A stretch of 64,000 nt of DNA, from UHGV virus genome UHGV-1352483; one strand, written 5' to 3'. Position 1 is the stretch's first letter; each line of letters begins with the position of its first letter. Below the pieces are notes generated by a model. The model saw only the letters and a program-made list of their open reading frames with translations. It ran no database searches and was not told the DNA's origin. Of this stretch, positions 1 through 29,261 are shown piece by piece. The translations under genes and the position numbers were made by a program. Source of the DNA: a virus.

Positions 1-74
1 GGATGGGAGATAATCCCTGATACTGATAGATGTGTGGGATAAAACTATATTGTATAACAGAAAAAAAAAAAACA

Positions 75-839
75 ATGAAAAGAGAAAGAAGTATTGAGGA
101 AATCATCTCAATTGTAAAAGTTAACGTAGGAAAAGAAGTAAAATGTTCTATGGGGCAAATTGGTAGAAAGGTAATTGCTGGGTACAGACAAGGAAACATT
201 AATGGTAATTTCGGTATATTGATAGGATTTCCTGATTCCTGTACAGCAGGCTGGGGATGCCCTATAGCAAGTGATGTCATTTTATTTAAATGTAAAAGCT
301 ATTGGTGGGTGGAACCTAAAGTTCTGTTAAATGAAAATCCTTATCTTGATTGTGATGTACAGAATAAACCATTGAACCTTGTAGAAATATTGAAGGATGT
401 TCCTCTTGGTACAAAGCTGTATTGCCCTGTATATGGAGAGGTTGCTTTAGAGGAAATAGACTATTGTGCAGATTATCCAATAATGTTCACTTTTGGATCT
501 GTTACAAAGGAGGGAAAATTCTACGAGGGCTATGAAGATGGAGAATGTATGCTGTTTCCCTCAAAAGAGAATAGGGATTGGAGCAAGTTTGTTCCTCCTT
601 TGAAAGACTTGGAGATTGATACTCCTATATTCTTATCTCACGATGGAGAACAATGGCTTTTCAGATATTATGCTGGAAAGGGGAGATACTTTGGAGACGG
701 TAAAACCAGTAAAAGTAAAGGTTTATTCACTCTTGGTATTTGTGAGTTCTCATATGTAGTCCTTGCAAAGGATTTCTGTTTTGATAATCCTACCTGTAAT
801 ACAGCCAAGTCTATTAAAGCTTCATTGCCATGTGGTTAA
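75..839 (+). CDS. Cys-rich hypothetical protein
   Basis: ORF 30..839 in the six-frame track. Start moved to the ATG at 75, which follows an A12 tract (61-72), the pattern seen before many genes in this block. No recognisable motifs. Confidence 0.45.
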   Translation: MKRERSIEEIISIVKVNVGKEVKCSMGQIGRKVIAGYRQGNINGNFGILIGFPDSCTAGWGCPIASDVILFKCKSYWWVEPKVLLNENPYLDCDVQNKPLNLVEILKDVPLGTKLYCPVYGEVALEEIDYCADYPIMFTFGSVTKEGKFYEGYEDGECMLFPSKENRDWSKFVPPLKDLEIDTPIFLSHDGEQWLFRYYAGKGRYFGDGKTSKSKGLFTLGICEFSYVVLAKDFCFDNPTCNTAKSIKASLPCG

Positions 840-1234
840 ATCTGATGCTTGAGTTCTTCTTATTAGGATTGATAGGAGGACTCTTGGGTATATTCTATAG
901 GAATTGCCTGAAACCTAGGAATATGATATTCAATTGGTGGTACTATAATGTCTTAGAGCATTGGGTAATTGAAGGACACTTATGTGTTGCCACTAAGTGG
1001 GATAAGTTCAAAAGATGGATTGCATTTCCATTAGGATATTGTATCTATTGCAGTGCAACTTGGATAACATTCTTCCTATGTATAATATACCTTTCAAGTT
1101 GGGAAGTTCTACCTAAATGGCAGGATATTCTGATAGGAATTATATTTGCCAGTGGTATCCAGCATTTAGTAGTATGTATAGCATGCAGGTTCCTTATAAA
1201 GGGGCATCATGATTTGGATAATGATATAGAATAA
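830..1234 (+). CDS. small multi-pass membrane protein
   Basis: The 134-aa ORF is dominated by hydrophobic segments (LLGLIGGLLGIF, ITFFLCIIYL, ILIGIIFASGI) and overlaps the upstream ORF by a few nt. Confidence 0.45.
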   Translation: MWLNLMLEFFLLGLIGGLLGIFYRNCLKPRNMIFNWWYYNVLEHWVIEGHLCVATKWDKFKRWIAFPLGYCIYCSATWITFFLCIIYLSSWEVLPKWQDILIGIIFASGIQHLVVCIACRFLIKGHHDLDNDIE

Positions 1235-1292
1235 GTTAAAATAATGTTAAACTCCTCTTTATATTTGCATATATCGGGGAGTTTACTTTACT

Positions 1293-2741
1293 TTGCAAAG
1301 TAATAATCAATTAAAGGAGATAAATGAAATGAATAAAGTAAATCCGTCAATAAAGAAATCAACTAGATTTGATACTGAAAGATTGGCTGGTGGTTCAGGA
1401 GCTTTAGTAGCTAAACAGAATAATACAGCATTGTTGAAAAGAGCAGTCCTCGCTAATTTATTATGGGAGGATATAGCTTATATGGATGGAGAATCTGTAG
1501 CTGATGAAATCAAGAGATTGATACCATTATGCCCTGCTGAAGATGTATATGATATAGCTTTGGCTGCAAGAACAGAACAGAAGTTAAGACATACTCCATT
1601 GTTCCTTGCATCAGAAATGTGTAAATATCCTGAACATAAACTATTTGTTTCAGACTTGTTGCCTAGGATAATTACAAGAGCGGATATGCTTGCTGATTTT
1701 CTTGCTATTTATTGGAAGGAAGGTAAGAAACCTATTGCCAATCAAGCAAAGAAAGGTCTTGCGGAAGCCTTTCATAATTTCAATGAATACAAGTTTGCAA
1801 AGTATGATAGGGAATCGGAAATCAAACTGAGGGATGTTTTATTTCTTGTTCATCCTAAACCGAATAATGCAGATGAGGAAGCTCTCTTCAAGAAGATTGC
1901 AGAGAGAAATTTGAGGACTCCCGATACATGGGAGGTAGCATTGTCAGCAGAAGGGAATAAGAAAGAAACATGGGTCAGATTGATTGAAGAAGGTAAGATA
2001 GGAGGACTTGCAATGCTGAGGAATATATCAAATATGATGAAAGCAAGTGTACCGATAAAAGTTATTGAAGAGGGACTAAACAGTATTCAATCTTCAATGC
2101 TCTTACCTTTTGATTTCCTTAAAGCATTCAAACAGAATCCTCAGTTTAGAAGACAGATTGAAGATGCAATGTTAAGTTCTTATGAACACCTTCCTAAACT
2201 TCCAGGCAGAACTCTATTTATATTGGACTGTTCAGGTTCAATGACAGCAAATCTGTCATATAGGTCTCAGCTTACAAGGCTTGATGCTGCAAAAGCTATG
2301 GCTATGCTGGCTATAAACCAATGTGAGGATTATGAGCTTGTATGTACAGCAGGAAATGATAGTAGAAAAAAAGGAGCTCACACAATAATCAATTATCCCT
2401 CAAGAGGATTTGATTTGCTAAGACAGATAGATGATACAAGTCATTTGATAGGTGGAGGAGGAATATTCACAAGACAATGTTTGGAATGGTGTAAGAGTAA
2501 ATATGCAGCAGGGGAACCTTTTGAGAGAATAATAGTATTCTCTGACTCTCAGGACTGTGATTATCCTGAAAAGAGAGTTCCCAAACCATTTGGGAAATAC
2601 AATTATATCTGTGATGTTTCATCAGAACTTAAAGGTGTAGACTATAAGGGAATATGGACAGCGGAAATAAGTAGTTTCAGTGCACATTTCCTTACCTATA
2701 TTGCAGCTATGGAAGGTCTGGAAAATAGATTTGAGGAATAA
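1293..2741 (+). CDS. rsr: Ro60/TROVE-domain + vWA protein (Rsr-like)
   Basis: The C-terminal vWA has the MIDAS motif LFILDCSGSM, then AAKAMAML and RIIVFSDSQD. These parallel the human Ro60 blocks FLLAVDVSASM, AAAMCMVV and VFIVFTDNET. N-terminal segments LAMLRNISNMMKASV, LFLVHPKP and RHTPLFLASEMC parallel Ro60 LLRNLGKMTANSV, LRLSHLKP and TTKQEPMLFALAIC, compared against the remembered human sequence. Two tRNA-like RNAs lie immediately downstream. Confidence 0.75.
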   Translation: MQSNNQLKEINEMNKVNPSIKKSTRFDTERLAGGSGALVAKQNNTALLKRAVLANLLWEDIAYMDGESVADEIKRLIPLCPAEDVYDIALAARTEQKLRHTPLFLASEMCKYPEHKLFVSDLLPRIITRADMLADFLAIYWKEGKKPIANQAKKGLAEAFHNFNEYKFAKYDRESEIKLRDVLFLVHPKPNNADEEALFKKIAERNLRTPDTWEVALSAEGNKKETWVRLIEEGKIGGLAMLRNISNMMKASVPIKVIEEGLNSIQSSMLLPFDFLKAFKQNPQFRRQIEDAMLSSYEHLPKLPGRTLFILDCSGSMTANLSYRSQLTRLDAAKAMAMLAINQCEDYELVCTAGNDSRKKGAHTIINYPSRGFDLLRQIDDTSHLIGGGGIFTRQCLEWCKSKYAAGEPFERIIVFSDSQDCDYPEKRVPKPFGKYNYICDVSSELKGVDYKGIWTAEISSFSAHFLTYIAAMEGLENRFEE

Positions 2742-2841
2742 GATAAAGAAAAAGTACCATTAGTGATTATTAGGGTTACTTCTATAATAATTTGAACAGG
2801 TCAAAACAATACCCTAATGACTGTTCTATGGTACTAATATG

Positions 2842-2971
2842 AAGGGGATAGCTCAGTCTGGTAGAGCACGTATAATACTGTATCTATTGTTATCATCTTT
2901 GGATGTATTGCTGATACAGTTACTTCAGGCTTTTAACCTTGTGGTCGTAGGTTCAAATCCTACTCCCCTTC
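2842..2971 (+). ncRNA. tRNA-like RNA with a ~55-nt insertion (candidate Y RNA / YrlA-like tRNA mimic)
   Basis: Perfect 7-bp acceptor stem AAGGGGA (2842-2848) with TCCCCTT (2964-2970). Canonical positions 8-9 TA. D-arm GCTC-AGTCTGGTA-GAGC (2851-2867). T-arm GTAGG-TTCAAAT-CCTAC (2947-2963). Lys-like anticodon loop CTTTTAA on a weak stem, then a 5-nt variable loop. About 55 extra nt containing an 8-bp hairpin (ACTGTATC/GATACAGT) sit between the D-arm and the anticodon stem, so it is not a canonical tRNA. Confidence 0.6.
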
Positions 2972-2976
2972 CTATA

Positions 2977-3107
2977 GGGGCATGTTACTCTCTGGTATTT
3001 CTAATGAACCTAGGATTAATTAGGATATCAACAGGTGGGAGAGTATCTTATATCTCTGAAATGCAAATAGGAGATTAATAAGTGAGGTTCGAGTCCTCCA
3101 TGCTCCT
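2977..3107 (+). ncRNA. second tandem tRNA-like element (degenerate; candidate second Y RNA-like RNA)
   Basis: Starts 5 nt after the first element. The 7-bp acceptor-like stem GGGGCAT (2977-2983) pairs with ATGCTCC (3100-3106) with one G.U pair. T-arm TGAGG-TTCGAGT-CCTCC (3083-3099) has a canonical TTCGAGT loop. No canonical D or anticodon arm was found between them. Confidence 0.35.
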
Positions 3108-3262
3108 CAATTAAAGAAAAAAAAAAATAAGATTAGTGTATTTAACGCTTACTTCAATTAATCAGTGCAGAATATAAAAATAGCGTTATAACTGTTCTAC
3201 CTTATTATCAAGCCTACTATTCAATAAAAAGAGTAGTAGGCTTTCTTTATTTATAGGATACT

Positions 3263-3634
3263 GTGTTATTATATATGAATAATGAAGTTAAAGTAAGTCT
3301 TACTGTTGTTCTTCCAGGAAGAACTATGGTAAGCCAGCAGGTGGCTGAAAACAAACCATTAGAGAGCTATGATACCATTGTAGTTGAACTTTGGGATAAG
3401 GAAGTACAGAAAAGGGAAAGGATGTTTGTAAAAGTAAGAAAGTCTATTCCTGCCAAACAGTCTATCAATCTTTCTGTGGATGCCTATAAATATATGGTGT
3501 CTGATGAAGCCCCTTATTTTATTAAGTCAAAGGTCTGGAAAGCCATGAATATAAAGAACAGACTTGAAGCTCACTTACAGAAGATTTGTGAACAATTAAA
3601 TGGTATATCATATACCTATGAGGTGTTAAACTAA
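3263..3634 (+). CDS. hypothetical protein
   Basis: 123-aa ORF with no recognisable motifs. Followed by an A11 tract and the next start codon. Confidence 0.4.
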   Translation: MLLYMNNEVKVSLTVVLPGRTMVSQQVAENKPLESYDTIVVELWDKEVQKRERMFVKVRKSIPAKQSINLSVDAYKYMVSDEAPYFIKSKVWKAMNIKNRLEAHLQKICEQLNGISYTYEVLN

Positions 3635-3644
3635 AAAAAAAAAC

Positions 3645-4145
3645 ATGGGAATAACAAAATGGACTCCTGAAATGGAGACAGAATTAAAACATTGTATAGA
3701 GCAACATGGGTGGTCATTAGGCACAGAAGCATTTAGAGCTTTACATCCTTCAATGTCTTATAGTGCATGTGCAAGCAAATGGTACATGTTCAAAAATAAT
3801 GGAGCTACCCATAGAAACCCTCGTGGAAAAGCAAGACTTCTAATCAGGGATAATATTGAGTTCATTAAAGAAGTAATATCTGAAAATCCTGATAACTTAA
3901 GAAGAGCTTTCAACATTATATCCAGAGAATTGAATATTGGAATTTCATATGTACAGGGTTGCTGGTATAATCATGAAAATTCTCCTATGCATAGAAGTAG
4001 GATAGGAAGCTGCTTTATGACTGTTGGCAAAAGAATGGGTGACAATACCAAGAATATAGCAGGAGATGCTTCATATTCTGTTGATTCTAAGGTATATGAG
4101 AAAGCTATTAAGAGGACTCTTAAGAACATTATACATGATAAGTAA
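3645..4145 (+). CDS. hypothetical protein, possible SANT/Myb-like HTH
   Basis: The start codon follows TAA-A11-C (3633-3644). The N-terminal WTPEMETELKHCIEQHGW...W spacing resembles a Myb/SANT repeat. Weak call. Confidence 0.4.
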   Translation: MGITKWTPEMETELKHCIEQHGWSLGTEAFRALHPSMSYSACASKWYMFKNNGATHRNPRGKARLLIRDNIEFIKEVISENPDNLRRAFNIISRELNIGISYVQGCWYNHENSPMHRSRIGSCFMTVGKRMGDNTKNIAGDASYSVDSKVYEKAIKRTLKNIIHDK

Positions 4146-4169
4146 TCAACTGTATTATTAAAGAGAACT

Positions 4170-4355
4170 GTGTTATTTATTAAGGTAGTAGTAATTCTGT
4201 TTGTTGTAGTTTGGGTTATAATATCCTTAAAGAGATATAAGCCTAAGATTGAGATTGTAGAATCATATAATACTATAATAGTATTACTATGGTATAATAA
4301 AAAAGACTGGTTTGGGAGTATTACCCGAGCCTATAAAATATTGTTTGAAATATGA
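4170..4355 (+). CDS. small hydrophobic protein
   Basis: 61 aa with one strongly hydrophobic segment (VVVILFVVVWVIISL). Could also be non-coding spacer. Confidence 0.25.
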   Translation: MLFIKVVVILFVVVWVIISLKRYKPKIEIVESYNTIIVLLWYNKKDWFGSITRAYKILFEI

Positions 4356-4819
4356 AGAAATTTCTATTGATTTATAGTATCCTCATTACAGCTGTATTTG
4401 GATTCTATTTTCTGTATAAGGAACATAAGGCAGTACCGGAATCTATGGAAGTAGGAGTAGTATTAGCCCAACCTGAGTTCCTGTTTAAGGAACTGAATGA
4501 TTCCATACTTATGCTGGCTTGTGAACACTATGGCTTAAAGGAGCCTAAGATAGTAACAGCCCAAGCTATATTGGAGACAGGGTGGTTCAGGTCTAAAGTA
4601 TTCAGAGAATATAATAACCCATTTGGACTGTTCAATAGCAGGACTATGCAGTATTTCAGATTCAGGCATTGGTCTGATGCTGTTATAATGTACAGGGATA
4701 ATATACAGAAAAGACTCAAGAGGAATGAGGACTATTATAATTTCCTTAAAAGGATAGGATATGCGGAAGACGAAGATTATATCAATAAAGTAAAGGCTTT
4801 AACTGATAGTCTTAGATGA
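4352..4819 (+). CDS. membrane-anchored glucosaminidase-family peptidoglycan hydrolase
   Basis: N-terminal TM helix (LLIYSILITAVFGFYFLY). The motif AQAILETGWFRS...NNPFGLFN matches the FlgJ/mannosyl-glycoprotein endo-beta-N-acetylglucosaminidase signature AQAxLESGWG...NNLFGIK. Confidence 0.6.
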   Translation: MKKFLLIYSILITAVFGFYFLYKEHKAVPESMEVGVVLAQPEFLFKELNDSILMLACEHYGLKEPKIVTAQAILETGWFRSKVFREYNNPFGLFNSRTMQYFRFRHWSDAVIMYRDNIQKRLKRNEDYYNFLKRIGYAEDEDYINKVKALTDSLR

Positions 4820-4839
4820 TAAAGACAAAAAAAAAGTTT

Positions 4840-5193
4840 ATGGAAATCAAGAGATTGAATATAAAATGGATTGATAAGGAAAATTTCATTTATACAGATA
4901 AAGAAGGGAAGGAGTTTTCCTACAAATGGATAGATGGAGGGAAATATTTCTCCAATAGAGGGGGACAGGCCAACGACCTTATATTTGATAGGGCTGTAGG
5001 AAATAAAGAGCAGAAGAGGCAATTCACACAGGAAGTTCTTGGGTATTGTGAAGGAGGGGATTTTCCTGTATGTTATTCCCTTGAAGATGCTACCAAATTA
5101 GTAAATGCCCTTAGAAAAGAATATCCTTGCTCAATTACTTCCTGTATAGTTGAAGACGAAGATGATGAAATAAAGCTTGATTTTTGTATTTAA
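4840..5193 (+). CDS. hypothetical protein
   Basis: In-frame with track ORF 4816..5193. The ATG at 4840 follows A9 (4827-4835) and is the more likely start. Confidence 0.4.
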   Translation: MEIKRLNIKWIDKENFIYTDKEGKEFSYKWIDGGKYFSNRGGQANDLIFDRAVGNKEQKRQFTQEVLGYCEGGDFPVCYSLEDATKLVNALRKEYPCSITSCIVEDEDDEIKLDFCI

Positions 5194-5209
5194 TAACAAA
5201 AAAAAAAAG

Positions 5210-5524
5210 ATGAAAATTATGAAAAAGTTAGAAGCATTAGCAAAAGGTTTAATCAAGGATTATCAGGTAGAGAGTAGAATGAAAAGAATCAACAGTGCAG
5301 TTGAAATGGCTAAGTTGAATCTTGAAGATGAAATCAATAAGATGAAATCAGAATATGAGGATTTGGAAGTATTACTTGCTACTGATGGCCCTATTGAAGA
5401 TACCATCCAAAGGATGTTCAAGATTACTCAGGGTATCAGAAAGAATGAGAAAGCTCTTGTTGATTTGAAGGCTGTAGTATCATCCTTGAATGAAGAAGTT
5501 GAAGCTGATAAAGTAAGCAAATGA
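5210..5524 (+). CDS. coiled-coil hypothetical protein
   Basis: The ATG at 5210 follows A11 (5198-5208), in-frame with track ORF 5177..5524. Charged heptad-like sequence. ATGA overlap with the next gene. Confidence 0.4.
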   Translation: MKIMKKLEALAKGLIKDYQVESRMKRINSAVEMAKLNLEDEINKMKSEYEDLEVLLATDGPIEDTIQRMFKITQGIRKNEKALVDLKAVVSSLNEEVEADKVSK

Positions 5525-7340: not shown

Positions 7341-7347
7341 ATGGAAT

Positions 7348-9546: not shown

Positions 9547-9589
9547 GATATAAGATAATGAAAAGAAAAAACAAAGAGAAAACAAAAGT

Positions 9590-9952: not shown

Positions 9953-9996
9953 GAATCAATATAATTATTTACGCCATTTAAAAGTAATATAAGAAC

Positions 9997-10893: not shown

Positions 10894-10941
10894 GTAAGTA
10901 TAGCACAAACAGAAAGAACAAAGATAATAGATAACACTTAA

Positions 10942-11949
10942 TTGAATGATATGGCTATTCATATAGGCAAACCAAGTATAACTCTTGAGAAGATTCTTGA
11001 GGTAGTAAGTGAGTTTGATATATTATATCACTATTTTGGTATAAACTCCTTACCCAAGTTAATAAAGTCCCCATTAAGACCTGATAATCATCCTTCCTTT
11101 GGCATTTATAGCCCAGGGGGAAACAAGGTATATTGGACTGACCTTGCAAATAGGGACAAAGGGGGAATATTTGATTTACTTATGAGATATTGGGGGATGA
11201 GTTACAATGAGGTACTTACCAAGATTTGGGAGGACTTACCTAATTTCTCAAGTAAGAAACCATTGATTTCAAAGTTGACTGCCAAAGGAGCTCCAATGCC
11301 TGTTAAAATATCCCATACAGAGCTTGAATGTAAAGTGAGGGATTGGAAAGAACATGATATAGAGTATTGGAATTCTTTTGGAATCAGCCTAGAGTGGCTG
11401 AAATATGCAGACATTTATCCGATATCTCACAAGATAATTATTAAGGATGGTAAAAGGTATGTATTCGGAGCAGACAAATATGCTTATGCCTATGTTGAAA
11501 GGAAAGAAGGCAAGATAACATTAAAGATATACCAGCCATTCAATAAAGATGGATATAAATGGACTAACAAACATGATATGTCTGTAATATCATTATGGAC
11601 TAAGGTTCCTGAAACAGGGGACAGAATATGTATCTGCTCTTCTATGAAGGATGCCTTATGTTTATGGAGTAATACAGGGATACCCGCCCTGTCCATACAA
11701 GGAGAAGGGTATAATATGAGTGATACAGCAGTTAGTGAACTCAAAAGGAGATATACGAAAGTATATACACTCCTGGATAATGATGAAGCAGGTCTGAAAG
11801 ATGGATTAAAGCTGTCAGAAGCCACTGGGTTCACTAACCTCGTATTACCAAACATTGCAGGATGTAAGGATATAAGTGATATATATAAACATCTGCAAAA
11901 CAGACAAGAATTCAGGAAGATAATCTTGGATTTGTTTGAGAGAAATTAA
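10942..11949 (+). CDS. DnaG-type primase (TOPRIM domain)
   Basis: C-terminal TOPRIM signature: conserved E in GEGYNMSD followed by the DxD block TLLDNDEAG. The N-terminal RPDNHPSFGIY resembles a primase zinc-binding region that has lost its cysteines. Confidence 0.55.
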   Translation: MNDMAIHIGKPSITLEKILEVVSEFDILYHYFGINSLPKLIKSPLRPDNHPSFGIYSPGGNKVYWTDLANRDKGGIFDLLMRYWGMSYNEVLTKIWEDLPNFSSKKPLISKLTAKGAPMPVKISHTELECKVRDWKEHDIEYWNSFGISLEWLKYADIYPISHKIIIKDGKRYVFGADKYAYAYVERKEGKITLKIYQPFNKDGYKWTNKHDMSVISLWTKVPETGDRICICSSMKDALCLWSNTGIPALSIQGEGYNMSDTAVSELKRRYTKVYTLLDNDEAGLKDGLKLSEATGFTNLVLPNIAGCKDISDIYKHLQNRQEFRKIILDLFERN

Positions 11950-11974
11950 TAAAAAAAAAACAAAAAAAAAGATT

Positions 11975-12703
11975 ATGGAAACTAACGGAAGAAACATTAC
12001 GATTATTAACAATAAGACTCAAAGTCAGAAAGTTATTGAAGGTTCTACAGCAACTACATTAGGTGAACTAAAGGCTGAAATGAGCAAACTTGGTATTCCT
12101 TATGTAGGAACTGAGTTTTATGAAGGCCATATTCGTGCAACCCTAAAGGATGATGCTTCTATCTTACCTTCAAATATTGAATATAAAGGTCAGGTTGTTA
12201 ATGATTTGACTTTCATTCTTTCAACACCTAACAAGAAGATTGAATCAGGTATGGCAACAAGAAAAGAATTATATGCGGAAATCGCAAAGAGAGGTTTAAA
12301 AGGGGATGCTATTGCAAAGTATGGTAAGAACTTCACCCAATGTTCAAACAGTCAGTTGGAAGAGCTTATCAGTAAGTCAAAACCTGCTGCAAAGGCAACT
12401 CCAGAAGCTAAAACTCCTGTAGTTGAACTAAAATCCAAGAAAGTAATTTCTAAGGTTGCAACAGTAAAATCAGGTAAGGATGTAGAAGTAAAGAGCACTA
12501 GTAATCTGGAAAGAGCATTCAGACAACTTGTTGAGGCCTTAAACAATGTATGCTTACTTACATCAGCAGATTATGCCAATATAATGGGTACTCTTGCAGG
12601 AACTGTAGCAGAGCCAGCTGCACCAGTTGAAAAGAAAGCAACTCTTAAAGTAAAGGATGCTAAGATTTCACAGGCTGAAATCAATGAAATGCTAGGTATT
12701 TGA
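11975..12703 (+). CDS. Lys/Ala-rich protein (possible histone-like DNA-binding)
   Basis: Start moved to the ATG at 11975, after the A10-C-A9 tract (11950-11970). Sequence is KPAAKATPEAKTPVVELKSKKVISKV. Followed by a hairpin plus T9 terminator. Confidence 0.4.
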   Translation: METNGRNITIINNKTQSQKVIEGSTATTLGELKAEMSKLGIPYVGTEFYEGHIRATLKDDASILPSNIEYKGQVVNDLTFILSTPNKKIESGMATRKELYAEIAKRGLKGDAIAKYGKNFTQCSNSQLEELISKSKPAAKATPEAKTPVVELKSKKVISKVATVKSGKDVEVKSTSNLERAFRQLVEALNNVCLLTSADYANIMGTLAGTVAEPAAPVEKKATLKVKDAKISQAEINEMLGI

Positions 12704-12715: not shown

Positions 12716-12748
12716 TAAGGGGAATCATTGAGATTCCCTTTTTTTTTA
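12716..12748 (+). terminator. rho-independent terminator
   Basis: 8-bp stem GGGGAATC / GATTCCCC (12719-12726 and 12732-12739), 5-nt loop, then T9 (12740-12748). Confidence 0.6.
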
Positions 12749-15077: not shown

Positions 15078-15080
15078 GAT

Positions 15081-17568: not shown

Positions 17569-17588
17569 ATTCATAAAATAAGTAAGAC

Positions 17589-19939: not shown

Positions 19940-22509
19940 CAGAATTGGAGTATTTTAAAGGGGATGAACTAGCAGCTTCAACATGGCAAAATAAGTATGC
20001 AGCAGAGGGAGAGGAAACTCCTGATGATATGCATAAAAGATTAGCTAAGGAGTTTGCTAGGGTTGAGGACAATTATAATTGGAGGATGAGTCAGGACAAT
20101 AAACTCAAACTATCCAATTATGGTTACAACAGACCTATATTAGACGAAGAAGGTATATATAATTTATTTAAGGACTTTAAGTATATTATTCCTGGAGGTT
20201 CTGTAATGTCAGGCTTAGGAACAGGAGCATTGGTTTCCTTATCTAATTGTTTTGTAATAGGTAGTCCTAAAGACAGCTATGCAGAAATAATGAGGACAAG
20301 GAACTTCCAAGTCCAACTTATGAAAAGAAGAGGGGGAGTAGGCTACGATTTATCAGAATTGAGGCCAAGAGGGGCTCAGGTAAATAATGCAGCCAGGACT
20401 TCAACTGGTGCAGCTTCTTTCATGGATGTATGTTCGGACATAACCAATGAGGTTGCCCAAAACGGGAGACGGGGGGCATTGATGCTAAGTATGAGTATTA
20501 ATCATCCTGACATTGAAGAATTTATAACTAAGAAACAGGATTTAACTAAGGTTACAGGAGCTAATATATCAGTTAAGGTTACTGATGAGTTTATGCAAGC
20601 TGTAGAGAAGGATGAAGATTATATTCTCAGATTCCCAGTAGATGAAAGTGTACCTCAAGGTCTTATGATTGAGGAGATGCCATATAATGAATTATGGTTC
20701 TTTTCAGATGATGACCATCCTAACTCTTTCTTTAAGAAAGTAAGAGCAAGAGAGCTATGGAATAAACTTATGCACTGTGCATGGAATACTGCTGAACCTG
20801 GTATAATGTTTGAGTCTCAAATGCACAATTATTCCCCTGACGGAGTATATGATGATTTCAGGATGATTGGGACAAATCCTTGTGGTGAAATACCAATGGG
20901 TCCTTATGATAGTTGCAGGTTGATTCATATAAACTTATCAAGTTATATTGATAAACCCTTTACAGATAAGGCATCCATTAATGAGGAATTGCTCTATACT
21001 CATGCATATGAAGCCATGAGGCTTGCAGACGACCTCGTAGACCTTGAAATTGAAGCTGTAGAAAAGATAATTGAAGCAGTAAAGGATGATGAGGACTTCA
21101 CAGAGTTCAATCTCTGGAGTAGAATAAGGGAAACTGCCAAGAAAGGGAGAAGAGCTGGTTTAGGTTTTACTGCACTGGCAGATGCAGTAGCTATGTTAGG
21201 TCTTAAGTATGATTCCGATGAAGGTCTCAAAGCTGTAGAACAGCTCATGAAGATTATGTTCAAAGGAGAATTGGATAGTACCATTGATATGGCTATTGAA
21301 AGAGGAGTATTCCCCACTTGGAATAGTAAACTAGAAGATGAAGGTAATTCATGGTTCAAAACCTTGAAGGAAACTGACTTGGACAGATATAAGAGACTTA
21401 TGTTATTCGGCAGAAGAAATATAAGTTGGTCTACTGTTGCACCTACTGGTACCGTAAGTATTTTAGCTGGTACATCCTCAGGAATAGAGCCTGTATTTAT
21501 GCCATTCTATCTGAGGAGAAGGAAGTGTATGTCCGAATCAGACAGAGTGGATTATATAGATAAGGTAGGGGAGAAGTATACATTATTCCCAGTTGTTCAC
21601 CCTAATCTGAAAAGATGGGTTCTTACAAATCAACTAAGGGATGCTGAGTCTCCTATTATCAGGCATTTACTTCCTCAAGAAGTGGTTCCTGGTAACCTTG
21701 AATGGTATATAGATGAAAACTGGACACTCAAGGAATGGGAAACTGCATTCAAGTATTCTCCTTATTATCAATCTACTGCATCAGAAATAGACTGGCATCA
21801 GAGAGTAAAACTTCAAGGTATTGTACAGAAGTATATTACCCATAGTATCAGTTCTACTGTCAATTTGAGTAAAGAAACTACTGAGGATGAGATTGCTGAC
21901 CTGTATATTGAAGCATGGAAGAATGGTCTTAAAGGTATAACCATATACAGAGATGGAAGTAGGGAAGGAGTACTTATCAAAGTTACCAAACCTGAACAGA
22001 TTGACAATAGGGAAGCACCCAAGAGACCTAAAGTTCTTGAAGCAGATTATTATCAGATTAAGTCCAAAGGAGAGCAGTTTATAGTTCTTGTCGGTCTATT
22101 AAAAGACAGACCTTACGAGATATTTGCATTCAAACCTCAGAGACCTGTTAACATAGAACATCATAAAGGTCAGATTACAAAGAGGGGTAAAGGTCAATAC
22201 AGTTTCAATTCGGAACATTTGAATATATCCAATATTCTATTGGCTAATGAGAATGTAGAAGAAAGGGCTGCAACTCTATATTCTTCAATGTTATTAAGGC
22301 ATGGAGTTGACATAAAGTATATTATTAAGACTGCCAAGAAGGTAAATGAGAATATATCTTCATTCAGTTCAGCTATGTGCAGAGTGCTGTCCAAATACCT
22401 TTCTAATGAGGAAGTAAAGGGGGAAACTTGCCCTCAATGTGGCGGTAAAATAATCCGTGAAGGGGGCTGCAAACATTGTGATTCCTGCGATTACAGTGCC
22501 TGTCAATAA
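19936..22509 (+). CDS. nrdJ: ribonucleotide reductase, class II (adenosylcobalamin-dependent, monomeric NrdJ-like)
   Basis: Active-site NPCGEIP thiyl-radical loop. C-terminal zinc ribbon CPQCGGKIIREGGCKHCDSC. No glycyl-radical motif (RVCGY) and no R2 partner in the window. Confidence 0.65.
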   Translation: MTELEYFKGDELAASTWQNKYAAEGEETPDDMHKRLAKEFARVEDNYNWRMSQDNKLKLSNYGYNRPILDEEGIYNLFKDFKYIIPGGSVMSGLGTGALVSLSNCFVIGSPKDSYAEIMRTRNFQVQLMKRRGGVGYDLSELRPRGAQVNNAARTSTGAASFMDVCSDITNEVAQNGRRGALMLSMSINHPDIEEFITKKQDLTKVTGANISVKVTDEFMQAVEKDEDYILRFPVDESVPQGLMIEEMPYNELWFFSDDDHPNSFFKKVRARELWNKLMHCAWNTAEPGIMFESQMHNYSPDGVYDDFRMIGTNPCGEIPMGPYDSCRLIHINLSSYIDKPFTDKASINEELLYTHAYEAMRLADDLVDLEIEAVEKIIEAVKDDEDFTEFNLWSRIRETAKKGRRAGLGFTALADAVAMLGLKYDSDEGLKAVEQLMKIMFKGELDSTIDMAIERGVFPTWNSKLEDEGNSWFKTLKETDLDRYKRLMLFGRRNISWSTVAPTGTVSILAGTSSGIEPVFMPFYLRRRKCMSESDRVDYIDKVGEKYTLFPVVHPNLKRWVLTNQLRDAESPIIRHLLPQEVVPGNLEWYIDENWTLKEWETAFKYSPYYQSTASEIDWHQRVKLQGIVQKYITHSISSTVNLSKETTEDEIADLYIEAWKNGLKGITIYRDGSREGVLIKVTKPEQIDNREAPKRPKVLEADYYQIKSKGEQFIVLVGLLKDRPYEIFAFKPQRPVNIEHHKGQITKRGKGQYSFNSEHLNISNILLANENVEERAATLYSSMLLRHGVDIKYIIKTAKKVNENISSFSSAMCRVLSKYLSNEEVKGETCPQCGGKIIREGGCKHCDSCDYSACQ

Positions 22510-22539
22510 TTAAAAAAAAAAAGATTACAGAAGGAAAGT

Positions 22540-23004: not shown

Positions 23005-23028
23005 GAACTAAAAAAAAAACATGAAAGC

Positions 23029-23535
23029 ATGGAATTTATTACAGGATTAATCGTAACATTAGCTTTAGCAGCTGTGCTAGCCTTTGTAGCTAATGTTGTA
23101 GACGATATACGGAAGAAAGGAAAAGCTATAAAAGGTAGGATTTCCTTTAGAGAGACAATGGATTTAACAGATTTGCCAATTATTACATTCATGAATAATG
23201 GTAAGAAACTTAACTTTCTTTTAGATAGTGGAGCTTCCTATTCATCAATAAATGAAAAGGCACTCAGGGGTCTCAAATATGAGAAGACTGAAGAAGTCGG
23301 AACTCATTATGGGATTGAAGGGGAACTGGTTGAATCCAGATATATTCAGATGAATGTTGAATATGCAAACAGTAACTATCTAGAGAATTTCCAAGTTGTA
23401 GATTTGAGTAAGGCATTTAATCAAATGAAGGCTGAAACAGGAGTAAATCTGCATGGTATATTAGGTAATTCTTTCTTCACAAGATATAAATATATACTAG
23501 ACTTCGATGAACTAACAGCTTATTCAGTTATGTAA
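23029..23535 (+). CDS. membrane-anchored retropepsin-like aspartic protease
   Basis: N-terminal TM helix LIVTLALAAVLAFVANVV. Catalytic FLLDSGAS (nt 23221-23238) matches the clan AA D-S/T-G-A motif. A10 lies upstream. Confidence 0.5.
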   Translation: MEFITGLIVTLALAAVLAFVANVVDDIRKKGKAIKGRISFRETMDLTDLPIITFMNNGKKLNFLLDSGASYSSINEKALRGLKYEKTEEVGTHYGIEGELVESRYIQMNVEYANSNYLENFQVVDLSKAFNQMKAETGVNLHGILGNSFFTRYKYILDFDELTAYSVM

Positions 23536-23536
23536 T

Positions 23537-23806
23537 ATGGAAGCAATAATTAAACTGGAATCCAAATATGAGGAAAGAAACTGGTTAAAAAGATTAAAGA
23601 AAGCTGGAACTGATGAAGAGTCCAAGACTTATCTGCTTAATACTGCTTCTCCTTTCAATGCGGGATATATAGATGCAAAGACCAAATTCATTGATTTGGC
23701 TGGAGGGCCTATGCTTATTGAAGGACAGTTTCTTGCGGAAGCTGACAGTAAGATAAAGTCCATTGACCATATTACTGGATTTGGCTGGACTATTACTTTC
23801 AGTTGA
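23537..23806 (+). CDS. hypothetical protein
   Basis: 89-aa ORF that starts immediately after the protease stop. Confidence 0.35.
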   Translation: MEAIIKLESKYEERNWLKRLKKAGTDEESKTYLLNTASPFNAGYIDAKTKFIDLAGGPMLIEGQFLAEADSKIKSIDHITGFGWTITFS

Positions 23807-23832
23807 TTAAAAAAAAAAAGAAAGGAGAGGAT

Positions 23833-26154
23833 ATGATTTATTTGGTATCTCAACAGATACTTCCTGAATCAGACTTATTCCAAAGGGTAACAGTTGAAGA
23901 ATCACTTGAGCTTCTTGAAAGGATAAGAACAGTAGGACTTGATACTGAAACCAAAGGGTTTGACCCTTATACCAAAGAACTCATAATGCTCCAATTAGGG
24001 TGTTATGAGTTTCAGGTAGTTATAGATATAACTACAGTAGACATTAATTTCTATAAGGAATATCTTGAATCTGATAGGTTGTTTATAGGTTGGAATATAA
24101 AGTTTGACCTTAAATTCCTGTTCCATCATAAGATTGTACTTAAGAATGTATATGATGGATTCCTTGCAGAAAAGTTAATGTGGTTAGGATATCCATCAGG
24201 TATTCATTCTATGGCTTTAAAAGCTGCTGGAGAGAACTATCTTGGGGTAGAACTGGATAAGACTGTACGAGGGAAGGTTATGTGGGCTGGACTTGCAGAA
24301 GATGTAATCGAATATGGAGCCAATGATGTAAAATATCTAGAGAAAATCAAGGATGCCCAACAGATAGAACTCAATAAAAGAGGGCTGGTTACAGCTCTTG
24401 AATATGAGAACAGGTCTGTAATTTGGATGGCATATACTGAATATTGTGGAGTTCTGCTGGATACAGAAAGGTGGAAACTTAAAATGACTTTGGATAGCTT
24501 TACTGAAAAGGTATTTAAGGATGCTCTCGACAACTGGGTAATATCATCATGTAAGGGTGAATTATATTCCTATCATTATCTACAGACTGAGGGTATGGAA
24601 GAGGAAGATATCCTTAAGGCAAGAAAGAAGATGAAAGGGGAAAGAAGCCCTGAACATGATATCAAAGGAGCTATAAGAGGATATTGTGAAGCCTATAAGA
24701 TTCCAGTGGATGCCAGACTAAGCAATAAGTTCATTAGAGAAGATTTACAGGGGGATTTATTCTTAGGATTTCAGGATAGGGCACAATGTCTTATCAACTG
24801 GGATAGTCCTAAACAAGTTATACCATTGTTTAAATCTCTAGGATTCAATCTGTTGGCAAAGGATAAGGATACAGGAGAATTCAAGGATAGCATAGAGGCT
24901 AAAGTAATAGAGCCTCAACAGGATAAATCTACTATTGCATATCTTTATTTGCAATATAAGGCAGCCAAGAAACTTACTTCTACTTATGGACAGAATGTAT
25001 TAGACCAAATTAATCCTGTTAGTGGAAGAATCCATACTAACTTCAATCAACTTGGAACTGATACAGGAAGGTTAAGTTCGGGTGGGAAGGATAAACAAAA
25101 CAATCTTGAGTATCTTAATTTCCAGAACTTTCCTAATGATAAGGAAACAAGAGCATGTTTTATATCAGGTAAGGGAATGAGATGGATATCATGTGATTAT
25201 TCAGGGCAGGAATCCAGGATTATAGCTGATATAACCAATGACCCTGCTATGATTGACTTGTTTAACAATGGCTGTGGGGATGTACATTCCCTAGTTGCTA
25301 AAATGGCTTTCCCTGATATTATAGGAGATTGTCCTATTGAGCAGATAAAGAAGAAGTTTCATGGGCTTAGGAATGATGTAAAATCACAAGTGGAATTTCC
25401 TATTAATTATGGTGGGGACTTCAATACTATTATGCAGCATTCAGGTAAATCCATGCAGGAGTCCAAGAGGATATATGATAATTATATGAAAGGTTTTAAG
25501 GGTATCAAGGCATATCAGGACAAACAGAGAGCACAGGTTATGAAGACTGGAATGATATTACTTAATCCTTACAGCCAGCATAAGGCATATATCTATGATT
25601 ATGATATCCTGATGGGTATTCAAGCTAGATTCAATAAGGAGTTCTGGGATACTTATAGGATATATAAAGGTCAGGAGAATAAACTTCTTCCCAAGCCTGT
25701 ACTTCAGGAACTCTATCAGAAGTTTGCAAGAGGAGATAGTTTCAATGGAATGGTAGGAACATACACCTATACTTCAAAGAAAGCCAATAAGTCTGAGAAC
25801 AAGGAAGTATATGTATCAATAGCTGATGTTTATGTACATCCTGTCAAACATTTCTTTAAGAGAAAGTCTGCTTCTGAGAAACAAAGTATAAACTACCCGT
25901 GCCAAGGAACTGGGGCTGTTATGTTCAAAACTGCTTCAATATTCTTATGGGAGTATTTATTAGAACATGATTTGGTATTTAAAGTAAAGTTGTGTATCCC
26001 CTGCCATGACGAAATTAATATAGAAGTACCTGAAAACATAGCTGATGAAATGACTGAAGTATTACAGGACTGTATGAAGAGAGCAGGAGGATTCTTCTGT
26101 AGAAAGATTGAGCTTCCCGCTGATGCAGAAGTAGGGAATTGCTGGATTCACTAA
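23833..26154 (+). CDS. family-A DNA polymerase with 3'-5' exonuclease domain
   Basis: Exo I DTETKGF, Exo III YGANDV, Pol motif A SCDYSGQESRI (DYSQIELR-like), motif B ...VEFPINYGG and motif C CHDEINIEV. Start set to the ATG at 23833, after A11 and AAAGGAGAGG. Confidence 0.8.
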   Translation: MIYLVSQQILPESDLFQRVTVEESLELLERIRTVGLDTETKGFDPYTKELIMLQLGCYEFQVVIDITTVDINFYKEYLESDRLFIGWNIKFDLKFLFHHKIVLKNVYDGFLAEKLMWLGYPSGIHSMALKAAGENYLGVELDKTVRGKVMWAGLAEDVIEYGANDVKYLEKIKDAQQIELNKRGLVTALEYENRSVIWMAYTEYCGVLLDTERWKLKMTLDSFTEKVFKDALDNWVISSCKGELYSYHYLQTEGMEEEDILKARKKMKGERSPEHDIKGAIRGYCEAYKIPVDARLSNKFIREDLQGDLFLGFQDRAQCLINWDSPKQVIPLFKSLGFNLLAKDKDTGEFKDSIEAKVIEPQQDKSTIAYLYLQYKAAKKLTSTYGQNVLDQINPVSGRIHTNFNQLGTDTGRLSSGGKDKQNNLEYLNFQNFPNDKETRACFISGKGMRWISCDYSGQESRIIADITNDPAMIDLFNNGCGDVHSLVAKMAFPDIIGDCPIEQIKKKFHGLRNDVKSQVEFPINYGGDFNTIMQHSGKSMQESKRIYDNYMKGFKGIKAYQDKQRAQVMKTGMILLNPYSQHKAYIYDYDILMGIQARFNKEFWDTYRIYKGQENKLLPKPVLQELYQKFARGDSFNGMVGTYTYTSKKANKSENKEVYVSIADVYVHPVKHFFKRKSASEKQSINYPCQGTGAVMFKTASIFLWEYLLEHDLVFKVKLCIPCHDEINIEVPENIADEMTEVLQDCMKRAGGFFCRKIELPADAEVGNCWIH

Positions 26155-26169
26155 AAATAAAGGACAAGT

Positions 26170-26424: not shown

Positions 26425-26701
26425 AACAGACCCGAAAGTAGCTCATTTTCATAAGATAACAGAGGGTATGACAGAAACATTTACAGCAAAGAACCATGAT
26501 TATGGAGATTCATTCGGTCAATCATTGGATGAATTTGGATTGGTGGCTTCTGTTGTAAGGTTAGGAGACAAAATGAATAGAATAAAATCCCTTACTAGAC
26601 AAGAAGGTCAGGTAAAGGATGAGTCTGTAAAGGATACATTATTGGATATGGCGAATTATGCTATAATGACAGTAATGTGGATGGAAAATCAAGAGAGATA
26701 A
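26405..26701 (+). CDS. hypothetical protein (possible nucleotide pyrophosphohydrolase-like)
   Basis: 98 aa. KNHDYGDSFGQ...RLGDKMNRI is reminiscent of small all-alpha phage NTP-PPase-like proteins. Weak call. Confidence 0.3.
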   Translation: MDIEISKTDPKVAHFHKITEGMTETFTAKNHDYGDSFGQSLDEFGLVASVVRLGDKMNRIKSLTRQEGQVKDESVKDTLLDMANYAIMTVMWMENQER

Positions 26702-26702
26702 T

Positions 26703-26978
26703 ATGGAAGAGTGTGAAAATGGATGTATTCCCTGTACAGCAGAAATACTTAAACTATGGTTAGTCAAGTATAATATAAGTACAGGAGGAAGGGGAATTGC
26801 TGTTGTAAAGGCTACTGGTGCTGAATCAGCTTCAAGAATTCTGAAAGCAGAAGGAAGTTTGAATGGAGTACCGAATAGTTATAATATAGTAAGTATGGAA
26901 GAGATTGATTATCTTCCTGATGCAGGAGTTATAGCGGAAGCTACATTATTAACACAAGAAGAGGAGAGTTGGAAATGA
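26703..26978 (+). CDS. hypothetical protein
   Basis: 91-aa ORF overlapping thyX by a few nt. Confidence 0.35.
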   Translation: MEECENGCIPCTAEILKLWLVKYNISTGGRGIAVVKATGAESASRILKAEGSLNGVPNSYNIVSMEEIDYLPDAGVIAEATLLTQEEESWK

Positions 26979-27844
26979 AACTTATCAAACCTTCATTTGA
27001 GATAATTGAGCAAGAGCCAGGACTGGACGGAGTATATAAGCAAATAGAACTTGCTGGAAGAACTTGTTATAAATCAGAAGATAAGATAACAGAGAATTCT
27101 GCAAAGGAATTTGTAGACAGGATGATTAAATCAGGACATGGAGCTATGCTTGAACATGGTACTGTTTATCTTGAAGCTAAAGATAAAGACCTGGCTGATA
27201 AATACTCTACCAATAGGTATTCAGTGGTTACATGGGTAAGTTATGGAATGGTTTCAAATACAGATGCTTATTACATTACAACTAATCTGAGAGTTCTCGT
27301 AGAAAACAATTGGATGAACGACCTTAATTTTCTTTGTGAACCTACAAAACTCCATGAGAAAAGAATCTCTGTAAGAGTCATTTGTGACCGTGGAGTTTCC
27401 CATGAGTTTGTAAGACATAGAGTATTCAGTTTTGCGCAAGAAAGTACGAGATATTGTAATTATTCTAAGGATAAGTATAATAATTGCGTTACTTTTATAC
27501 TTCCTAATTGGTGTACTAATGTTAATGTAGATGATTACAAAAGGAATCCTAAATTAATGTATAATGCTAATGGAACATTGACTGATAATGAAATAAATTT
27601 CTTATGTGGACTATATGATTCTGAATCAAGATATTTGAAATTATTAGAAAATGGTTGGACTCCCCAACAAGCAAGAGCTATATTACCTAACAGTCTTAAA
27701 ACAGAACTGGTAATAACTGGCACTGTCAGTCAATGGAAAGGTTTCTTTAAATTAAGGGATAGTATGAAAGCTCATCCTCAGGCTTATGAATTAGCCCATC
27801 CTTTACATGAAGAATTTATAAGAAGAGGCTATATTAATGAATAA
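26969..27844 (+). CDS. thyX: flavin-dependent thymidylate synthase ThyX
   Basis: ThyX signature RHRxxSxxxxSxRY present as FVRHRVFSFAQESTRY. Confidence 0.75.
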   Translation: MEMKLIKPSFEIIEQEPGLDGVYKQIELAGRTCYKSEDKITENSAKEFVDRMIKSGHGAMLEHGTVYLEAKDKDLADKYSTNRYSVVTWVSYGMVSNTDAYYITTNLRVLVENNWMNDLNFLCEPTKLHEKRISVRVICDRGVSHEFVRHRVFSFAQESTRYCNYSKDKYNNCVTFILPNWCTNVNVDDYKRNPKLMYNANGTLTDNEINFLCGLYDSESRYLKLLENGWTPQQARAILPNSLKTELVITGTVSQWKGFFKLRDSMKAHPQAYELAHPLHEEFIRRGYINE

Positions 27845-27852
27845 AAAAAAAC

Positions 27853-28620
27853 ATGAGAACAAACCTTATTAAAAACAAAATTGAAACAGAAATAAAGGAG
27901 CAAAAGAATGAGGTATCTGATAGTAAATTGGATATGGTGATTGCTTTTGATACTACTGGTTCCATGAGTAATTATATTGATGCTGTAAAGAAGCATGTGC
28001 GGGAACTCATTTCAAAATTACTAGACAGTAATCCTGATTTAAGGATAGGAATAGTAGCCTTTGGAGATTATTGTGATGCTACATCAGCGAATGACCTTGG
28101 TATAGCATACCAATGTATTTATCCTACAAATGAAAAAGAACTTCTTATTGATTTTGTAGTATCATCCAAGAGAACCTCAGGAGGAGACTATAATGAATTC
28201 TATGAGCTGGTTATCAAGAAGATTACTGAGGAAACCCCTTGGAGAGAGGATGCTAAAAAGTCAGTATTACTAATAGCTGATGCTACCCCTCATAGTATTG
28301 GTTATAATTATCCAGGTATGGTGAAAAACAATCAGATTGATTGGAAAGAGGAAGCTAGGAAGGCTGCTGCAAAAGGTGTTAAGTTTGACACTGTCACTAT
28401 AAGCCCTCATATTTGGTTTAAGGAGTTATCAGAAATAACTAATGGTATTTCTGTGCCATTCAGTAATAGTTATAAAACTGCTCAGCTTATGGAAGCTGCT
28501 GCTTATGCAAGAGGGGGAGGCAAAACAAGAGCCCTTTATAAAAAGCAAGTAGAAGCAGTAAAGGATGATATTGAATTATCTATGGTATATGAAGCTTATT
28601 CAAAGGAAGTTATAGGATAA
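27853..28620 (+). CDS. vWA-domain protein
   Basis: MIDAS motif VIAFDTTGSM near the N-terminus, then IVAFGDY. Start follows A9-C. Confidence 0.5.
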   Translation: MRTNLIKNKIETEIKEQKNEVSDSKLDMVIAFDTTGSMSNYIDAVKKHVRELISKLLDSNPDLRIGIVAFGDYCDATSANDLGIAYQCIYPTNEKELLIDFVVSSKRTSGGDYNEFYELVIKKITEETPWREDAKKSVLLIADATPHSIGYNYPGMVKNNQIDWKEEARKAAAKGVKFDTVTISPHIWFKELSEITNGISVPFSNSYKTAQLMEAAAYARGGGKTRALYKKQVEAVKDDIELSMVYEAYSKEVIG

Positions 28621-28634
28621 AAAAAAAGAAAACT

Positions 28635-29261
28635 ATGAAAGTAAATTTAAAAGAAATTCAAGTAGGAGATGTATTCTCAGAAGAATCTCATTATGTAGTA
28701 AACAAGATTGAGAAAGATAAGATTGAGTTCCTTCATCTTGAGAGTAATAAAGTTGTTAGCCTTAACAATAAGTATGTTCAGGACTTACTTAATACTTCAG
28801 ACCAGTACGAAACTGAAGTAAAAGTAGGTAAGGAAGATAAGAAAGATGGTACTCCTGGTATAAGAACCATATGGGAGGGTATTAGGTCTTCTGAGGTATT
28901 CACTGTTATATTCAAGAAACAGGATAAGCCTAAGACAAAGAAACAATATCTTCAAGAGCTTGATAATCAGAGAACAGAAGCCATTGCTCTTATAGATAAA
29001 GCCAAGAAGAATAAGAAATCTATGGCAGAAGCCTACAAGGAAGCTCTTGAATTGGTACAGAATAACCCAATAAAGGATTATATTGAAGGGGAAGATAGGG
29101 TACTCCGGGGTTATAAGCTACAGTTTGTTTCCAGAGATGGAAAGTACAAATGTATAGATGTAGATGTTAAGAAGTCTGCAAAAGAAACAGGAGAAAGGTT
29201 AGTTAACATTAATACTATCTCCTGTATCATATACAATGGTACTAAATATGTAGTTGAATAG
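28635..29261 (+). CDS. hypothetical protein
   Basis: 208 aa, charged. Last gene before a strong terminator. Confidence 0.4.
   Translation: MKVNLKEIQVGDVFSEESHYVVNKIEKDKIEFLHLESNKVVSLNNKYVQDLLNTSDQYETEVKVGKEDKKDGTPGIRTIWEGIRSSEVFTVIFKKQDKPKTKKQYLQELDNQRTEAIALIDKAKKNKKSMAEAYKEALELVQNNPIKDYIEGEDRVLRGYKLQFVSRDGKYKCIDVDVKKSAKETGERLVNINTISCIIYNGTKYVVE

Follow-up and report, generated by a model that had tools for sequence, protein, structure and literature searches.

Ribosomes of Bacteroidia are known to sequester their anti-Shine-Dalgarno (anti-SD) sequence, and SD pairing is not used for initiation (PMC6847099, PMC13000457). Initiation in these bacteria is promoted by adenines at positions -3, -6, -12 and -13, by low RNA structure and by scarcity of nearby AUGs, and ribosomal protein bS1 has been proposed to bind the -12 to -15 region (PMC6847099, PMC13000457). 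Training of a gene finder also placed an A-rich motif some 9 nt from the starts of Bacteroides genes and recovered a TAAAAA core for Flavobacterium (PMC6028130), and a passage of that paper citing Wegmann (2013) states that mutation of the A-rich region lowers expression. In the 64,000-nucleotide (nt) stretch of viral DNA analyzed here (UHGV virus genome UHGV-1352483; the window below means this whole stretch), uninterrupted runs of adenines stand in front of the start codons of eleven genes. These tracts are probably intercistronic translation-initiation leaders, an extreme homopolymeric form of the A-rich initiation region of Bacteroidia.

The window is a crAss-like phage sequence of the Steigviridae/Asinivirinae, the crAss001 lineage. 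Its + strand genes (1-41457) comprise early and replication genes followed by two giant virion RNA polymerase genes, its - strand genes (64000 down to 41556) are structural, and the two convergent blocks meet at a bidirectional terminator. The + block contains 12 sense-strand runs of A9-A12, and the - block one. Markov models of order 1-4 predict 0.4-1.7 runs of at least nine adenines for the + block, against the 12 observed, and 0.39 for its non-coding sequence (1214 nt). The lengths of A runs in this block are bimodal, with eight runs of length 6, two of length 7, none of length 8 and 12 of length 9-12. From this bimodality and the excess over the Markov models, the tracts are a class of their own, rather than the extreme end of an A-rich base composition. 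Each of the eleven ATGs behind a tract opens a long open reading frame (ORF), at distances of 1, 1, 1, 2, 4, 4, 6, 7, 9, 13 and 17 nt from the tract. The preliminary description of the window, made from its sequence, had held that the tracts are not equally frequent at random positions. This is borne out: of the 76 tracts of at least nine adenines in the window and in 41 related loci anchored on PolA, 58 lie within 20 nt upstream of a same-strand ATG with an ORF of at least 50 amino acids (aa), compared with 9.3% of random positions, although many tracts are orthologous and the nominal p-value therefore overstates their independence.

The location of the tracts is as regular as their form. When starts were called blind to the tracts, as the first ATG of each sense ORF, eight of the ten positive gaps of 8-30 nt in the + block were found to hold a tract, and none was found at overlapping junctions (ATGA and similar) or in gaps of 43-206 nt. 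Nor is there a tract in front of the first cistrons behind terminators, which start at 3275, 12758 and 29412. Thus, the tracts are intercistronic spacers within operons. Their orientation follows transcription, with A on the sense strand in both the + and the - block. In the most frequent geometry, the tract is followed by CA or GT and then ATG, so that it ends at -3. Positions -10 to -12 are covered by 78-84% of the start-proximal tracts, and positions -3 to -8 and -13 by 53-67%; the tracts occupy the adenine-favoured zone reported for Bacteroidia (typically -3 to -13), and this coverage agrees with the A-rich motif some 9 nt from Bacteroides starts. The unpaired probability calculated in silico for -20 to +10 is 0.65 for genes with a tract, 0.53 for other genes and 0.43 for random positions. 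The general background invoked earlier, that Bacteroidota do without SD sequences and favour A-rich leaders, fits this phage, since the hosts of its relatives are Bacteroides and the tracts lie in the ribosome-covered part of the leader (PMC6847099, PMC13000457, PMC6028130).

A mechanism can be proposed on this basis. Polycistronic early and replication mRNAs would carry 9-12 adenines between an upstream stop and the next ATG, and would thereby offer this ATG an all-adenine, unstructured landing site for the ribosome. Such a site would meet the needs of SD-independent initiation, namely A at -3, -6 and -11 to -14, low structure and possibly bS1 binding, and would serve internal cistrons that have no translational coupling by overlap. 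The tract would then raise initiation, either through bS1 or through low structure. The homopolymer would represent the far end of a continuum of A-rich spacers, in which replication slippage would lengthen or shorten the tract and selection would keep its adenine richness.

The tracts recur in related crAss-like genomes. The cultured isolate crAss001 has ten sense-strand tracts of A9-A17, all in the replication/early block and all 0-13 nt upstream of independently annotated GenBank starts. The same pattern is seen in cr106_1 and DAC15, and a second tract-bearing clade within the Steigviridae/Asinivirinae is Mahlunavirus (cr128_1), with a PolA identity of 42%. An assembly artefact is ruled out by the recurrence at orthologous sites in the independently sequenced crAss001 and DAC15. 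No tracts were found in clades at 39% PolA identity and in locus L019, despite GC contents of 30-38%, nor in crAss002 (Intestiviridae, GC 32%), and the Bacteroides fragilis siphovirus B40-8 has no start-associated tracts. The signal had been called phage-specific, and this is right in a narrow sense: the homopolymer form was seen in Steigviridae/Asinivirinae genomes, and not in crAss002, more distant crAss clades, B40-8 or 473 kb of Bacteroidales chromosome.

Orthologous junctions differ in how well the tract is kept. At the junction between dUTPase and the next gene (23010 in the window), A7-A10 is kept in more than 20 genomes, among them Mahlunavirus, crAss001 and DAC15. Retention of this tract while PolA identity falls to 42% argues for selection. 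At the junction in front of dUTPase (22512), locus L012 is arranged similarly, with A8, and in the Mahlunavirus clade A9-A11 is located 10-12 nt upstream of the dUTPase start. The counterpart of the 11951 junction in cr106_1 has two A11 tracts. The N-terminus of PolA is conserved in about 40 loci, and a tract before polA is present only in the window, L002 (cr106_1) and L012. At the junction behind thyX (27843), cr106_1 has A10, and in other relatives the gene behind the tract is a different one, or a different upstream gene overlaps the start as TAATG. The 28619 junction has a homopolymer in the window and an interrupted A-rich spacer, TAAAATCAAGACAA-ATG or similar, in its orthologues; judged from these spacers, the homopolymer is the derived state here. 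At the 17589 junction, the window is merely A-rich and twelve relatives have A9-A17. Within orthologous families, tract lengths span 9-17, 9-13 and 9-10 adenines, the distance from the 3′ end of the tract to the ATG is conserved within junction families, and the variation in length lies on the 5′ side. This gain and loss, together with the spread in length, indicates that the tract is labile, length-polymorphic and continuous with ordinary A-rich spacers. The differences of 9-17 A between genomes also lend indirect support to the earlier idea of a slippage hotspot. The tracts lie between the upstream stop and the ATG, with no flanking promoter hexamers, an arrangement different from that of contingency-type switches. 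A frameshift or fusion site is ruled out because the stop precedes the tract.

A separate observation concerns the thyX junction, where the tract stays and the next gene changes: it is an 80-aa gene in the crAss001 type (66269-66522; L003-L021) and a gene for a VWA-domain protein in the window and cr106_1. Different upstream genes also adjoin the same tract, and tracts coincide with mosaic or indel boundaries.

The tracts are unevenly distributed between gene classes. In the window, crAss001 and DAC15 taken together, which are related genomes and may share one inherited pattern, a tract precedes 19 of 153 early/replication genes and one of 91 late genes (Fisher p = 0.0012). When only spacers of 8-30 nt are counted, 17 of 33 have a tract in the early/replication class and none of 11 in the late class (p = 0.003). 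The spacers of late genes, though rich in A, are interrupted, and GGAG-like ones occur among them. This bias leaves room for class-specific regulation, or for mutation tied to some module difference. A dedicated regulatory signal had been suggested for the window, but no evidence was obtained for one distinct from an extreme A-rich leader.

In several late genes, SD-like motifs (GGAG or GGAGG) stand 5-12 nt upstream of the ATG, as in TAAGGAGAATAAT-ATG and TAGGAGGAGAT-ATG. They are found at the starts 61438, 48267 and 46604 in the - block of the window, and also in late genes of DAC15 and crAss001. Their frequency in late genes (15 of 91) is about twice the background of about 7%, and the difference from early genes (16 of 152) is not significant. 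These motifs are odd, as Bacteroidia ribosomes reportedly ignore SD sequences.

Several points weigh against tracts as initiation leaders. Those ending 9-17 nt from the ATG (22512, 23809 and 23010) do not fit a purely position-specific requirement for adenines at -3, -6, -12 and -13. The most abundant proteins, the major capsid protein and products of other late genes, are encoded without tracts, which is not predicted by a simple "strong ribosome-binding site" idea. An A11 run at 3117-3127 (+), missing from the preliminary list, is associated with no gene start; two tRNA-like elements (2843-3113) are on its 5′ side and a terminator hairpin (3210-3243) is on its 3′ side. Differences in tract length between assemblies may partly be sequencing or assembly error. 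Finally, A/T runs in 473 kb of Bacteroidales chromosomal flanks decay smoothly (1199, 416, 138, 49 and 14 for lengths 5-9), with no run of at least ten and one of the 14 A9 runs preceding an ORF; this baseline consists of flanks of a Bacteroidales 16S segment, that is, rRNA-upstream regions only, with 46% GC against 36% in the phage. Since such homopolymers are absent from this host-type sequence, the translation system of the host does not require them.

It is rather unlikely that the tracts are a mutational by-product, in which spacers need only be A-rich and unstructured, slipped-strand mispairing expands any run past about eight adenines, and the homopolymer itself adds no function. The exchange of homopolymeric and interrupted spacers at 28619, gain and loss of the tract at the polA junction, tract lengths of 9-17 and the bimodal run lengths, as a slippage threshold would give, are all in line with such an origin, and in 28 of 42 junction families a T adjoins the 5′ end of the tract, giving TAA in some frame, as fits growth from a TAA stop. 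However, one junction keeps its tract across deep divergence, late spacers equally long, and from the same genomes, are rich in A without ever being homopolymeric (0/11 versus 17/33), no tracts occur in crAss002 or in more distant crAss clades of equal or lower GC, and a purely mutational process is not obviously expected to respect gene class. It is this bias, persisting among spacers of equal length, that would be explained by a class-specific operator, at which a poly(A)-binding factor of the phage or the bS1 of the host boosts early and middle cistrons or later shuts them off, and crAss001 does have distinct early, middle and late transcription modules. We nevertheless consider such an operator improbable: no candidate RNA-binding regulator was found among the proteins scanned, the bias in three related genomes may be one inherited pattern, and only 10-25% of early/replication genes have a tract. 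Much the same doubt applies to the tract as a temporal-class mark on internal early/replication cistrons, recognized as poly(A) by bS1 or a phage RNA-binding protein. If this were true, translation of genes with tracts would be boosted early and shut down once late genes take over, and the phage population could tune the class mark through the hypervariable length of the tract.

A role in transcription, whether as promoter or initiator, as a site of reiterative transcription giving poly(A) 5′ leaders or as a pause or termination element, is very unlikely. It is true that A runs of at least nine cause RNA polymerase slippage, that T-A(n)-(N)-ATG superficially resembles the TAAATG initiator of poxviruses and that early promoters of crAss-like phages have no known consensus. 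The tracts lie inside operons, however, in gaps of 8-30 nt that are too short for a promoter, no hairpin is adjacent to them, and first cistrons behind terminators have no tracts. The -7/-33 motif of Bacteroides was found upstream of 0/11 tracts (the -7 element TAnnTTTG was looked for in sense orientation within 120 nt on the 5′ side), and sigma-70-type matches upstream of the tracts are at background level. The middle and late promoters of phi14:2 and related crAss-like phages are motifs of the sigma type, and no motif is common to the early transcripts. Promoters are thus rejected on the absence of a motif and on the short gaps within operons. Terminator tails are ruled out for sense-A tracts as well, which are on the wrong strand and have no adjacent hairpin in the required orientation; the sense-strand T runs at 12739, 29287 and 41525 (+) and at 61466-61475 (- reading) each follow a G+C-rich hairpin and are terminator tails. 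The least probable of all is that the tracts are recombination boundaries, that is, microhomology at borders of gene cassettes aiding mosaic gain and loss of small genes. The thyX tract, which is fixed while its neighbours change (80-aa gene or VWA gene downstream, different genes upstream), would suit such exchange. Examples are few, though, and recombination needs neither strict sense orientation nor a fixed distance to the ATG. It would at most be a side effect.

The individual tracts differ in how they join the upstream stop. The runs listed in the preliminary description are all present, and the sole correction to their coordinates is at 11950, which is T, so that the tract there is A10 and A9 split by C. 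On the + strand, A12 at 61-72 follows a TAA at 55-57 and is separated by CA from ATG 75 (gene 75-839, function unknown). A11 at 3633-3643 is fused to the TAA (3632-3634) of gene 3275-3634 and followed by C and ATG 3645 (gene 3645-4145). A9 at 4827-4835 is followed by GTTT and ATG 4840, with an alternative in-frame ATG at 4816 overlapping the upstream TGA (ATGA). A11 at 5198-5208 comes after a tandem TAA TAA (5191-5196) and C, and precedes G and ATG 5210 (gene 5210-5524). The double tract A10-C-A9 (11951-11960 and 11962-11970) comes after TAA (11947-11949) and T, and precedes GATT and ATG 11975; the gene behind it (11975-12703) sits downstream of a primase-like gene. Farther along the block, A11 at 22512-22522 begins 2 nt past the TAA of the RNR gene and lies 17 nt upstream of the dUTPase ATG (22540), and A10 at 23010-23019 begins 5 nt past the dUTPase TAA, with an out-of-frame ATG at 23021 before the real start at 23029 of an aspartyl-protease-like gene. 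A11 at 23809-23819, 2 nt past a TGA (23804-23806), is followed by GAAAGGAGAGGAT and the ATG of DNA polymerase A (23833). A9 at 27843-27851 is fused to the thyX TAA (27842-27844) and followed by C and ATG 27853 of the VWA-domain gene, and A9 at 28619-28627 is fused to a TAA (28618-28620) and followed by GAAAACT and ATG 28635.

The - strand has the same pattern, as had been noted from the T11 at 58645-58655, which is a sense A11 followed by GAACAT and the ATG (58638) of crAss tail hub protein A. It is the sole tract of the late block. Directly 5′ of it, at 58656-58690 (-), is a terminator hairpin with a T-rich tail, giving the order GGGCACTTAATTGTGCCC-TTTTTTCTTT-A11-GAACAT-ATG. The U-tail and the A tract could pair together in read-through transcripts.

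All eleven ATGs have a tract near them, as described before, but "directly preceded" is too strict for distances of 1-17 nt. TAA is the most frequent stop codon in the window (35 of 54). The statement that tracts are usually fused to an upstream TAA was overstated and applies to only 3-4 of 11. The stop's own AA falls within the run only at 3633, 27843 and 28619, and at 11950 there is a second in-frame TAA. The remaining + tracts begin 2-7 nt past the stop, and two of those stops are TGA. Accordingly, the strict TAA-A(n)-ATG form is a minority.

The tracts also bear on the calling of starts. Four starts had been proposed to move downstream, and three of these revisions (5177 to 5210, 11936 to 11975 and 23803 to 23833) are supported by orthologues and the cr106_1 annotation, which begin at the same ATGs; the TTG "starts" at 5177, 11936 and 23803 lie upstream of, or overlap, the stop of the preceding gene. 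The fourth, from 4816 to 4840, is unproven, as a tblastn search with the ORF at 4816 returned no homologue. ATG 4816 forms an ATGA stop/start overlap, a type used eight other times in this genome, but 4840 is favoured because no other run of at least nine adenines is coding in the genome. For the first gene, the start is probably at 75 rather than 30, because the upstream stop context is conserved: the junction type …tattgtaTAAc..A(n)caATG also occurs in the related loci L001 and L021. In tblastn, alignment of the 30-839 ORF begins only at residue 110. When viral sequences were scanned with the helicase as seed, one locus only was obtained, so that the junctions at 61-5208 have little orthologue support. 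The claim that no tract is inside coding sequence thus holds with the starts 75 and 4840, but with first-ATG calls at 30 and 4816 two tracts would be coding.

At 23010-23031, a conserved pair of ATGs 7-8 nt apart directly follows the tract (A10-C-ATG-AAA-GC-ATG). The pair is also present at this dUTPase-downstream junction in L001-L029, crAss001 and DAC15, and only L014 has no first ATG. The first, out-of-frame ATG opens a mini-ORF of nine codons in the window, MKTW* in cr106_1 and MRT* with an ATGA overlap in DAC15. This junction departs from the scarcity of nearby AUGs in Bacteroidia, and its mini-ORF may represent a short upstream ORF with coupling to the main start.

Long homopolymers of other kinds were also seen in related or compared genomes. 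In B40-8 (L166), an A10 at 2641-2650 is inside the gene just upstream of the tape-measure gene, which is the usual position of the programmed frameshift of tail-assembly chaperones. In crAss001 (L164), a sense T14 at 20071-20084 occupies the 24-nt late spacer between Gp24 and Gp25 as a pyrimidine mirror of the early A tracts, and a non-coding A12-TT-A12 pair is located near the genome start (205-230). A33 and A24 in L018 (12456-12533) and A16 in L020 (12456-12471) are inside an insertion of about 1 kb, by which the match to polA grows to 3.3 kb. Possibly the insert is of the intron or intein type, with poly-A at its borders.

The closest megablast matches of the window are cr106_1, Kehishuvirus 'tikkala', cr126_1 and PhiCrAssBcn isolates, which share 72-78% DNA identity over small fractions only, and a scan of bacterial genomes seeded with RNR found no relatives. 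The closest cultured relatives grow on Bacteroides intestinalis, B. thetaiotaomicron and B. cellulosilyticus, and from these hosts the host of the window phage is presumably also a Bacteroides. Pfam matches include the Crassvirus major capsid protein on the - strand (61508-63022), an auxiliary capsid protein and tail hub proteins A and B among structural genes, and PolA, class II RNR, dUTPase, ThyX, UDG, a DnaB-like helicase and a Toprim primase among replication and nucleotide genes. Further matches are ThiF/JAB and a TROVE (Ro-like) protein.

The gene of this TROVE/Ro60-like protein (1329-2741) is followed by two tandem tRNA-like elements (2843-3113). Element 1 (2843-2975) has an acceptor and D arm, an insert of about 50 nt, an anticodon-like arm and a T arm, and scores 22.2 bits against the Rfam tRNA model with a threshold of 29. 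Element 2 (2975-3113) has an 8-bp acceptor-like stem and the T arm GGTTCGAGTCC. ARAGORN and Rfam at gathering thresholds gave nothing in the window. The pair resembles a YrlA-type, Y-RNA-like partner for the Ro protein of the phage, and the ORF at 2839-3078 is probably spurious. In crAss001, an unannotated gap of 900 nt exists at the matching position.

The principle of A-rich leaders without SD sequences is known, and we found no description of homopolymer tracts in crAss-like phages within the open-access literature searched. The homopolymer form, its limitation to one phage subfamily and to early/replication operons, and its length polymorphism appear to be new. In practice, the tracts are a reliable landmark of start codons in Asinivirinae crAss-like genomes, where longest-ORF calls over-extend genes, and they mark sites at which homopolymer length differences are expected between strains and sequencing runs. 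They also suggest compact natural leaders for gene expression in Bacteroides. A phage lineage would here have driven the SD-free initiation rule of its host to an extreme that the host does not use, and the limitation to early/replication genes is a hint of translational control by gene class in the most abundant human gut virus family.

Known systems resemble the tracts to different degrees. RegA of phage T4 represses early mRNAs at A/U-rich start regions. The likeness lies in A/U-rich start regions of a temporal class of phage genes and is an analogy only, as no RegA-like protein was found among the window proteins scanned and there is no sign of repression. Contingency loci, such as the poly(A) in the Mycoplasma vlp promoter and the poly-G of Neisseria and Campylobacter, are inside ORFs or between promoter hexamers and act by on/off switching. 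Both are slippage-prone homopolymers whose length differs between close strains, but the phage tracts are outside the ORF and without a promoter, and a change in length alters their 5′ extent only. Intermediate and late mRNAs of poxviruses have 5′ poly(A) leaders, which are untemplated products of polymerase slippage at the TAAAT initiator and form the mRNA 5′ end. These too are homopolymeric A right before a viral AUG, and they have been tied to a translational advantage; unlike those of this eukaryotic system, the phage tracts are encoded in DNA and located between cistrons. The A/U-rich enhancers that depend on bS1 in E. coli and its phages are mostly U-rich or of mixed composition and work in concert with SD sequences. 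They share with the tracts an unstructured A/U-rich leader 5′ of the start, thought of as promoting 30S binding without strong SD pairing. The closest match is the A-rich initiation region of Bacteroidia itself (Baez et al., 2019, PMC6847099; Arpin et al., 2026, PMC13000457; GeneMarkS-2 group B, PMC6028130). The two share the host phylum, independence from SD sequences, A at -3, -6 and -11 to -14, low predicted structure and a place directly 5′ of the ATG. The host motif, however, is a matter of statistical enrichment around a short core (TAAAAA, for instance), whereas the phage tracts are runs of 9-17 A, limited to early/replication intercistronic gaps of one subfamily and polymorphic in length.

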